In this document: in pieces, positions 31,286 through 34,383 of the stretch
Layout of the letters: every line of letters begins with the position of its first letter
How positions within the stretch are numbered: the stretch's first letter is position 1
NCBI RefSeq assembly: GCF_041248615.1
Contig: NZ_CP158426.1
Length of the DNA stretch: 64,000 nucleotides
Direction: 5' to 3' (one strand)
Source: Escherichia coli
GTDB taxonomy: Bacteria > Pseudomonadota > Gammaproteobacteria > Enterobacterales > Enterobacteriaceae
Program-made: the position numbers and the translations under genes
The notes under the pieces: model-generated
What the model was told of the DNA's origin: nothing
What the model saw: the letters and a program-made list of their open reading frames with translations, nothing else
Databases searched by the model: none

Positions 31286-32704
31286 ATGCATGTACAGCCC
31301 ATTTCAACTTTCCGTTTGTTCCAGGAAGGTCATCTGCTACGTAATAGCATCGCTATTTTTGCGCTAACCACGCTGTTCTATTTCATTGGTGCAGAGTTAC
31401 GGCTGGTTCACGAACTTTCTCTTTTCTGGCCGCTGAATGGCGTAATGGCGGGGGTGTTTGCCCGCTATGTCTGGCTTAATCGGCTGCATTACTATGCGAT
31501 CAGTTATGTGGCGATGCTGGTTTATGATGCCATAACCACCGAATGGGGGCTGGTTTCACTGGCTATCAATTTCTCCAATATGATGTTTATTGTTACCGTC
31601 GCCTTACTGGTCGCGCGGGATAAGCGTCTGGGGAAAAATAAGTACGAACCAGTAAGTGCCTTACGGCTATTTAATTACTGTCTGATTGCCGCATTATTAT
31701 GCGCTATTGTCGGGGCGATTGGTTCGGTCAGTATTGATAGTCTGGATTTCTGGCCTTTGCTTGCGGACTGGTTCAGTGAGCAATTCTCAACGGGCGTGTT
31801 GATCGTGCCTTGTATGCTGACGTTGGCTATTCCGGGAGTGCTGCCGCGCTTTAAAGCAGAACAGATGATGCCCGCCATCGCGCTTATTGTGTCGGTTATT
31901 GCCTCGGTAGTCATTGGCGGAGCGGGGAGTCTGGCGTTCCCACTGCCTGCATTAATCTGGTGTGCAGTGCGCTATACGCCGCAGGTAACATGTCTGTTGA
32001 CCTTTGTCACCGGTGCGGTGGAAATCGTACTGGTGGCAAATTCGGTGATTGATATCTCGGTCGGTTCGCCGTTCTCCATTCCGGAAATGTTCTCCGCACG
32101 TCTCGGTATTGCCACGATGGCGATATGCCCAATTATGGTTTCTTTTAGCGTGGCAGCGATCAATTCGCTAATGAAGCAAGTTGCGCTGCGAGCCGACTTT
32201 GATTTTCTGACTCAGGTTTACTCACGGTCCGGTCTTTATGAGGCGCTGAAAAGTCCATCGCTGAAACAGACACAACATCTGACTGTCATGCTGCTTGATA
32301 TCGACTATTTCAAAAGTATTAACGATAACTATGGACATGAATGTGGCGATAAAGTGTTAAGCGTGTTTGCAAGGCATATTCAGAAGATTGTCGGTGATAA
32401 GGGGCTGGTGGCACGAATGGGCGGCGAAGAATTTGCTGTTGCAGTGCCGTCGGTGAATCCTGTCGATGGTCTGCTAATGGCGGAAAAAATCCGTAAAGGC
32501 GTTGAACTGCAACCATTCACCTGGCAACAAAAAACGCTTTATCTCACGGTAAGTATTGGCGTCGGTAGTGGTCGCGCATCGTACCGAACGCTGACCGATG
32601 ACTTTAATAAATTGATGGTCGAAGCCGATACGTGTCTGTATCGCTCGAAGAAAGATGGGCGCAACCGTACCAGCACTATGCGTTACGGTGAGGAAGTTGT
32701 CTGA
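31286..32704 (+). CDS. dgcF: membrane-anchored diguanylate cyclase DgcF (YneF)
   Basis: 472-aa ORF; N-terminal multi-TM region plus C-terminal GGDEF domain with RMGGEEF motif. Confidence 0.8.
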   Translation: MHVQPISTFRLFQEGHLLRNSIAIFALTTLFYFIGAELRLVHELSLFWPLNGVMAGVFARYVWLNRLHYYAISYVAMLVYDAITTEWGLVSLAINFSNMMFIVTVALLVARDKRLGKNKYEPVSALRLFNYCLIAALLCAIVGAIGSVSIDSLDFWPLLADWFSEQFSTGVLIVPCMLTLAIPGVLPRFKAEQMMPAIALIVSVIASVVIGGAGSLAFPLPALIWCAVRYTPQVTCLLTFVTGAVEIVLVANSVIDISVGSPFSIPEMFSARLGIATMAICPIMVSFSVAAINSLMKQVALRADFDFLTQVYSRSGLYEALKSPSLKQTQHLTVMLLDIDYFKSINDNYGHECGDKVLSVFARHIQKIVGDKGLVARMGGEEFAVAVPSVNPVDGLLMAEKIRKGVELQPFTWQQKTLYLTVSIGVGSGRASYRTLTDDFNKLMVEADTCLYRSKKDGRNRTSTMRYGEEVV

Positions 32705-32877
32705 CATCTTTATTCATTCACAGCGATTTTAACGGAATGTGTTCTACCACTTTATTGAGCGAATAAAAGGCGTAGTTCCTCGATTAAACCATGATCCGCG
32801 CCACACTTTTCTCATAAAACTGCTCATTAATCATCAGGAGTTGATCAAAACAGGGGTTCGGTGTATTAAAGTTTGCT

Positions 32878-32904
32878 AACCTGTCGTACCAATTCAAACA
32901 GGTT
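32878..32904. promoter_or_regulatory. inverted repeat AACCTGT-N13-ACAGGTT containing GTACCAATT, upstream of uxaB; candidate ExuR/UxuR operator
   Basis: read directly about 30-55 bp upstream of the uxaB start; ExuR control of uxaB is established but this site is inferred. Confidence 0.3.
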
Positions 32905-32931
32905 GTATGACTAATCAGAAGGGAACCCATT

Positions 32932-34383
32932 GTGAAAACACTAAATCGTCGCGATTTTCCCGGTGCACAGTATCCAGAACGTATCATTCAGTTTGGTGAA
33001 GGTAACTTCCTGCGCGCCTTTGTTGACTGGCAAATCGATCTCCTGAATGAGCACACCGATCTGAATTCTGGCGTGGTCGTTGTTCGTCCGATTGAAACTT
33101 CATTCCCACCGTCACTGAGCACACAGGATGGTCTGTACACCACCATTATCCGTGGCCTGAATGAGAAGGGTGAAGCGGTCAGCGACGCGCGTCTGATTCG
33201 CTCGGTTAATCGTGAAATCAGCGTCTACAGTGAATTCGATGAATTCCTGAAACTGGCGCACAATCCGGAAATGCGCTTTGTTTTCTCTAACACCACCGAA
33301 GCGGGTATCAGCTACCATGCGGGCGATAAATTCGATGACGCGCCGGCTGTAAGTTATCCGGCAAAACTGACCCGTCTGCTGTTCGAACGTTTTAGCCATT
33401 TCAACGGTGCGCTGGATAAAGGTTGGATCATCATCCCGTGTGAGTTGATCGACTACAATGGCGACGCGTTGCGTGAACTTGTGCTGCGCTATGCGCAAGA
33501 GTGGGCACTACCAGAAGCATTTATTCAATGGCTGGATCAGGCTAACAGCTTCTGTTCTACGCTGGTGGACCGTATCGTTACCGGCTATCCGCGTGATGAA
33601 GTGGCTAAACTGGAAGAAGAACTGGGTTATCACGATGGTTTCCTCGACACCGCTGAACACTTTTACCTGTTTGTGATTCAGGGGCCGAAATCCTTAGCGA
33701 CTGAACTGCGTCTGGACAAATATCCGCTCAACGTGCTGATTGTTGACGATATTAAACCGTATAAAGAACGCAAAGTGGCAATACTCAACGGTGCGCACAC
33801 CGCGCTGGTGCCGGTGGCGTTCCAGGCAGGGCTGGATACCGTAGGTGAAGCGATGAACGATGCTGAAATTTGCGCATTCGTTGAAAAAGCCATCTACGAA
33901 GAGATTATTCCGGTACTGGATTTGCCTCGTGATGAACTGGAATCTTTCGCCAGTGCAGTCACCGGACGTTTCCGTAATCCGTACATCAAGCATCAGCTGC
34001 TGTCTATCGCGCTTAACGGTATGACCAAGTTCCGCACCCGTATCCTGCCGCAGCTGCTGGCAGGGCAGAAGGCAAACGGCACACTTCCGGCGCGCCTTAC
34101 TTTCGCATTAGCGGCATTGATTGCGTTTTATCGCGGTGAGCGTAATGGAGAAACATATCCGGTACAGGACGATGCCCACTGGCTGGAACGTTATCAGCAA
34201 CTCTGGAGCCAGCATCGTGACCGTGTTATCGGCACCCAGGAGTTGGTAGCGATTGTGTTGGCAGAAAAAGACCACTGGGAGCAGGACCTGACGCAAGTGC
34301 CTGGTCTGGTCGAGCAGGTGGCTAATGACCTGGATGTGATTCTCGAAAAAGGAATGCGCGAAGCTGTACGTCCGTTGTGCTAA
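32932..34383 (+). CDS. uxaB: altronate oxidoreductase (tagaturonate reductase) UxaB
   Basis: 483-aa ORF, GTG-initiated; mannitol dehydrogenase-family motifs; recognised as UxaB. Confidence 0.9.

Follow-up and report, generated by a model that had tools for sequence, protein, structure and literature searches.

A predicted ExuR/UxuR-type operator box over the extended −10 and start site of uxaB in Escherichia coli, and an inverted repeat best explained as a by-product

Regulators of the FadR subfamily of the GntR family are winged-helix dimers that bind a short GT...AC dyad and are released by small molecules, the box of FadR itself being TGGTnnnACCA-like. Genetic evidence for control of uxaB by ExuR reportedly dates from the 1980s, and comparative genomics is said to have predicted the ExuR/UxuR boxes in 2000; the consensus of Rodionov 2000 reportedly agrees with AAATTGGTATACCAATTT. 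A published biosensor (PMC8092373) employed this sequence as its UxuR site, and published biosensor work also found that ExuR operators repress well both between the −35 and −10 elements and downstream of the −10. The uxaB gene has been reported in published work to be ExuR-repressed and hexuronate-induced. ExuR control of uxaB is already known biology, and the useful outcome of the present analysis is a promoter map, in which a predicted operator at 32878–32895 lies over an extended −10 and the transcription start site (TSS), with a stronger box at −196.

The window analyzed here is the whole 64-kb stretch of DNA, which belongs to the E. coli chromosome: the 1 kb around the feature under study matches 5,417 of 5,426 complete E. 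coli genomes. The initial annotation had singled out an inverted repeat, AACCTGT-N13-ACAGGTT, about 30–55 bp upstream of the uxaB GTG, and had read it as operator-like because it encloses an ACCAATT-type half-site of the kind associated with ExuR/UxuR. The repeat is there as described, with perfect 7-bp arms (AACCTGT at 32878–32884 and ACAGGTT at 32898–32904) and a 13-nt spacer at 32885–32897, CGTACCAATTCAA, which contains GTACCAATT. Since uxaB starts at the GTG at 32932, the repeat (32878–32904) lies 54 to 28 nt upstream of it, in agreement with the distance and the downstream gene originally given, and it sits in the 227-bp intergenic region between a dgcF-like diguanylate cyclase gene and uxaB (Table 1). 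The upstream diguanylate cyclase open reading frame encodes 472 aa in this window, and the matching genomes annotate it as sensor-domain-containing; the annotation of K-12 dgcF gives 948 bp (315 aa). The flank 3′ of the diguanylate cyclase stop, to about −130 of uxaB, differs from that of K-12, where the stretch between the dgcF stop and about −130 carries a hairpin-like GGAAAAGGCGTTTTTCC.

Table 1. Features of the uxaB promoter region, in window coordinates
Feature	Sequence	Position	Strand	Remarks
Diguanylate cyclase gene (dgcF-like), upstream of uxaB		31286–32704		
Upstream ExuR/UxuR-type box	AATGTGTTCTACCACTTT	32736–32753	.	−196 to −179 relative to the GTG; highest score in the window
Most conserved upstream block	TTGATCAAAACAGGGGTTC	32841–32859	.	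also given as TTGATCAAAACAGGGKTTC; TTGATCAAAAC 98% identical
Extended −10	TGcTAACCT	32874–32882	+	TG at 32874–32875, hexamer TAACCT at 32877–32882
Predicted ExuR/UxuR-type operator box	AACCTGTCGTACCAATTC	32878–32895	.	18-bp pseudo-palindrome, axis 32886.5; spanning −14 to +4 with the published TSS as +1
Left arm of the repeat	AACCTGT	32878–32884	.	degenerate left half of the predicted ExuR box; overlaps the −10 hexamer; −14 to −8
uxaB TSS		32892	+	published coordinate, converted; 40 nt upstream of the GTG
Right arm of the repeat	ACAGGTT	32898–32904	.	outside the predicted ExuR box; +7 to +13 of the transcript; in the conserved leader block
Leader block	CAGGTTGTATGACTAAT	32899–32915	+	near-invariant; +8 to +24
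Shine-Dalgarno sequence of uxaB	AAGGGA	32919–32924	+	sequence reading; G at 32922 invariant in the alignment
uxaB (tagaturonate reductase / altronate oxidoreductase)		32932–34383	+	GTG start as annotated

We scanned the K-12 hexuronate regulatory regions with the consensus, which gave one box each upstream of uxaC, exuT, exuR and uxuR and two upstream of uxuA. Those at uxaC (AAATTGGTGTGATAACTT), exuT (AACTTGTCATACAACTTT) and exuR (tATTTGTTATACCACTTT) all recur at equal positions when the uxaC-exuT-exuR locus is compared in Enterobacter, Yersinia, Serratia and Pantoea; being conserved across five species, these three boxes were validated as phylogenetic footprints. A position weight matrix (PWM) was trained on the uxaC, exuT, exuR, uxuA and uxuR boxes, which were chosen by consensus scanning and conservation rather than as footprinted sites, and the uxaB sites were left out of the training. 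With this matrix the box beginning at 32878 scores 14.1 bits and ranks second among the ∼64,000 positions of the window, the next best score being 11.1 bits. A score of at least 14.1 bits has a probability of 1.2e-5 per position, or 0.0025 expected matches in the 227-bp intergenic region. The training sites score between 14.1 and 22.4 bits, which puts the uxaB box at the bottom of their range, and its 12 of 18 matches to the consensus, with 3–4 of 9 positions matching in the left half, place it at the weak end of the family. The box combines the left repeat arm, AACCTGT, with the ACCAATT-containing spacer, and its right half reads TACCAATTC.

For conservation we collected 80 uxaB loci from Enterobacteriaceae with 83–98% protein identity, 67 of whose upstream regions were aligned. 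The aligned position of the box (−53 to −58 from the start codon) reaches at least 9 bits in 73 of 81 Enterobacteriaceae genomes, and ACCAAT (32888–32893) is 97% identical across the aligned promoters. The form that the uxaB box takes in most other genera, AAGTTATTACACCAATCT, matches the E. coli uxaC box AAGTTATCACACCAATTT at 16 of 18 positions. The part of the initial annotation that placed an ACCAATT-type half-site of an ExuR/UxuR operator just 5′ of uxaB is thus borne out by score, rank and conservation, and 32878–32895 is quite probably an ExuR/UxuR-type operator (GntR family, FadR subfamily) on the uxaB promoter. A full-text literature search with the site sequence returned AFLP papers only, because CGTACCAATTC is the core of an EcoRI AFLP primer.

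Compared with the operators of the hexuronate regulon (uxaCA, exuT, exuR, uxuAB and uxuR), the uxaB box shares their length of 18 bp, their pseudo-palindromic form of the AAATTGGTATACCAATTT type, their location in a hexuronate gene promoter and their conservation across Enterobacterales. The closest resemblance is to uxaC, whose box differs from the uxaB box of other genera at 2 of 18 positions, and at both promoters a half-site (ATAACTT / AAGTTAT / AACCTGT) doubles as the extended −10, TGATAACTT at uxaC and TGCTAACCT at uxaB, although the two overlaps have opposite orientations relative to the box. What sets the E. coli uxaB box apart from the regulon is its degenerate left half, AACCTGTCG, together with the lowest score of the set. 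The position also varies between promoters, since at exuT a CRP site and the −10 flank the box, while the uxaB box lies over the −10 and the start. In K-12 the CRP-like TTTGTGATGGCTCTCACCTTTT at exuT is directly 5′ of the ExuR box and well conserved in all five species, and a CRP-like TTATTGATCTAACTCACGAAA is found upstream of the uxaC box. Relative to FadR operators, the AAAT/ATTT flanks of the uxaB box and its regulon membership point to ExuR/UxuR at the DNA level. In its placement over the −10 and +1 the uxaB box resembles lac O1 and the synthetic ExuR biosensor promoters, with the mechanism at uxaB suggested by position, and beside occluding operators of the lac O1 type uxaB has what may be an auxiliary box upstream, at −196.

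The position of the box relative to the promoter follows from published mapping, in which the uxaB TSS at 1608744 (U00096.2) is listed as an 'experimentally validated TSS' (Peano et al. 2015, PMC4447067, Table 1) and the −10 is given as CTAACCT, in the region AAGTTTG-CTAACCT-GT.. (Table S3 of the same paper). The offset from U00096.2 to NC_000913.3 is 1976 here and was tested on lpp, whose listed TSS falls, with this offset, 38 nt 5′ of the lpp ATG. The lpp leader is 38 nt long. K-12 and the window are identical in sequence around the uxaB TSS, the box at 32878–32895 corresponding to K-12 1610717–1610734 and the one at 32736–32753 to about 1610859–1610876. The extended −10 pattern TGnTAnnnT is invariant, being present in all 67 aligned promoters and in all 81 scanned genomes, and its hexamer ends 9 nt before the TSS, a spacing on the long side. 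A scan of the promoter region gave no canonical sigma-70 −35/−10 pair, which fits an extended −10, activator-assisted promoter. A different promoter that would transcribe the left arm, TTGATC-N17-TATTAA (32841/32864), was set aside, as its −10 varies even among E. coli genomes.

Overlapping the −10 and the TSS, the box extends from −14 to +4, where promoter-blocking repressors classically sit. A repressor dimer bound there would stop RNA polymerase from recognizing the −10 and opening the DNA, and a hexuronate-derived inducer that binds ExuR would release the repressor. The uxaB box may also be bound by UxuR, a paralogue whose motif is essentially identical. We infer this occupancy by ExuR, and the occlusion of the −10 and start, from the position of the box together with what is known of the exu regulon and of FadR-subfamily GntR regulators.

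The box at 32878 is not the strongest in the window. The −196 box scores 19.2 bits, ranks first in the 64 kb (P = 2.5e-7 per position) and begins 31 nt past the diguanylate cyclase stop. The working operator could accordingly be sought at 32736–32753, with the −54 box as a weak or non-functional look-alike that is conserved via the −10 and start region, as might be expected from the 19.2 bits against 14.1 and from the coincidence of the left half of the −54 box with a −10 that would be conserved regardless. We consider this very unlikely, since the best-kept part of the −54 box, ACCAAT, is downstream of the −10 and without promoter role, and since a site 156 bp 5′ of the TSS cannot alone block polymerase. 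The phylogenetic distributions also argue against it: the upstream box is found at −196 to −217 only in Escherichia and Citrobacter and is elsewhere missing or displaced, several other genera having weaker boxes at −128 to −141, as opposed to a −54 box in 73 of 81 genomes. At 156 bp from the TSS, where it would not block polymerase by itself, the −196 box is more likely an auxiliary operator, a plausible role beside the predicted operator at −54. A further ExuR-like 18-mer, GAAGTTGTCTGACATCTT, at 32693–32710 (9.9 bits, rank 5 in the window), spans the diguanylate cyclase stop codon 43 nt 5′ of the −196 box, and a similar box occurs at one other compared locus.

The inverted repeat itself fares differently from the half-site that it encloses. 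Perfect inverted repeats with 7-bp arms and spacers of 0–20 occur 160 times in the 64-kb window, where Markov-1 simulations average 96.6, and a spacer of exactly 13 is found in 12 of the 160; across the window, AACCTGT/ACAGGTT is not clearly more than chance would provide. Its conservation is poor. All seven complementary pairs are kept in 4 of the 67 aligned promoters, and most promoters retain 2–3 of the seven. Covariation between the arms, assessed over the 67 promoters by paired cells, compensatory changes and a covariation score, was not clearly above shuffled controls; further pair types were marginally above them (16 of 500 shuffles), and sliding the arm partners by one column gave a score of 0.090 vs 0.095 for the true pairing. 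The left arm becomes AAGTTAT in most genera and the right arm stays constant as CAGGYT, complementarity of the arms being confined to the Escherichia/Citrobacter/Intestinirhabdus lineage. Among natural variants of Escherichia the right arm changes from A to G at 32898 and 32900 with the left arm constant. With the dyad so poorly kept in the alignment and the right arm varying alone in Escherichia, we regard the repeat as a lineage-specific feature rather than a conserved element.

These data bear directly on the idea that the repeat is the operator, that is, that a dimeric regulator, ExuR or another, binds AACCTGT and ACAGGTT, 20 bp apart, around the TSS. The perfect arms reach p = 0.05 locally, for the longest-arm statistic of the 70-bp promoter region against dinucleotide shuffles, the repeat axis at 32891 adjoins the TSS at 32892, and dyads on the same axis are found in genomes of the C. 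amalonaticus group (6 bp) and in Intestinirhabdus (11-bp arms). All of this would fit such an operator, but the arms are unlike the ExuR half-site, their axis is 4.5 bp off the conserved box axis (32891 against 32886.5), and the distance from CTG to CAG among such dyads ranges from N14 to N22, unlike a fixed dimer. In addition, the left arm changes against a constant right arm in most genera without covariation, and the Escherichia variants break Watson-Crick pairs in the right arm while the left arm is constant. An operator formed by the dyad thus appears even less probable than one at −196, and the original reading of AACCTGT-N13-ACAGGTT as an operator does not stand, with its axis displaced, its right arm outside the box and its pairs conserved in so few promoters. 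The best explanation is that the inverted repeat is a by-product, its left arm supplied by the predicted operator and the −10 and its right arm opening the leader block. Eye-catching as it is, the repeat should not be annotated as an operator.

Least probable of all is that the repeat acts as a hairpin on stability, termination or translation, whether in the uxaB leader RNA, in RNA reading through from the diguanylate cyclase gene or as a DNA cruciform. The minimum-free-energy fold does use the repeat, the folding z of −66 to −21 averages −1.24 over 69 distinct orthologues, the A-to-G changes at 32898 and 32900 keep G·U pairs while a C-to-T change at 32885 adds a pair, and a scan 3′ of the upstream gene found no intrinsic terminator. 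However, the TSS at 32892 falls inside the loop and hence between the arms, so that the left arm (−14 to −8) is not in the uxaB transcript, and in E. coli the z is only −0.65 to −1.2 (−0.65 for the RNA fold of 32870–32950). The repeat lacks a U-tract and does not overlap the Shine-Dalgarno sequence, RNAalifold found no conserved structure in the orthologous leaders, no covariation of the pairs was found, and there was no Rfam match. In roughly half of the genera no repeat exceeds chance, and the negative mean z is itself partly what a palindromic operator would be expected to produce.

As for protein sites of other families, a CRP or FNR site at the repeat was rejected on its spacing, TGT-N13-ACA instead of TGT-N10-ACA, and the best matches in the intergenic region to the CRP (TGTGA-N6-TCACA) and FNR (TTGAT-N4-ATCAA) consensus are weak and lie outside the repeat.

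Several other lineages carry repeats of their own in this promoter. The repeat of Enterobacter, Lelliottia and Silvania is TGATAAG-N13-CTTATCA, its axis no more than 0.5 bp from that of the ExuR box. In Klebsiella it is AACCTGA-N20-TCAGGTT, K. indica shows a repeat with arms of 9–10 bp, and Intestinirhabdus has AACCTGTTGGA-N4-TCCAACAGGTT, with 11-bp arms on the E. coli axis. These repeats are located around −59, around −62 or at −54, and their left arm always overlaps the −10 region. Across 27 genus representatives, p was below 0.05 in 5, with a median of 0.27 and about half showing nothing above chance; Fisher's combined p over the 27 genera was 0.001, a value driven by two outliers and computed over lineages that are not independent. 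Given the repeats of other lineages, selection for dyad symmetry could conceivably extend to some degree past the 18-mer.

The promoter alignment contains four conserved blocks, at 32841–32859, 32874–32882, 32888–32893 and 32901–32911, the last of which belongs to a leader block that is more conserved than the operator box. Within it GGYTGTATGAC (32901–32911, +10 to +20) is 94% identical over 67 genomes, and TGTATGAC (32904–32911) is present in 74 of 81. The core of the leader block, GTTGTATGAC, is identical to the core of the exuT box; a second canonical ExuR box at 32899–32916, which would share this core, was rejected at a PWM score of 0.1 bit (rank 212). The block also contains AGG-N4-ATG, whose ATG at 32907 is the start of an out-of-frame mini-ORF of variable length, with 31 codons in E. 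coli and 3–12 in other genera. The near-invariant leader block and the independently built lineage repeats that link the −10 to it are clues to a second control element, which might be an auxiliary, non-canonical ExuR/UxuR half-operator or a device based on the leader and mini-ORF, though we hold such an element to be rather unlikely.

At the other end of the promoter, the centre of the most conserved upstream block (32841–32859) is 29.5 bp 5′ of the start of the −10 hexamer, which corresponds to the geometry of a class-II activator (−41.5). The block holds an 8-bp palindrome, TTGATCAA, that includes a GATC site. An FNR ChIP peak has been reported at the uxaB promoter in published work. As candidates for TTGATCAAAACAGGG, KdgR, CRP and FNR sites were all weak, with 9/21, 9/22 and 3–4/10 mismatches respectively and hundreds of equal matches in the window, and the literature searched yielded no link between KdgR and uxaB. 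A sigma-54 promoter, suggested by a gSELEX peak at 1,608,732, was likewise rejected, as no GG-N10-GC element was seen in the sequence. Published peaks that fall at about 32860–32905 (1608732–1608774 in U00096.2) include those of FNR (ChIP) and of ArcA (ChIP, persisting aerobically), and the same uxaB promoter also has published peaks of the sigma-S holoenzyme (ChIP-seq) and of the sigma-54 holoenzyme (gSELEX).
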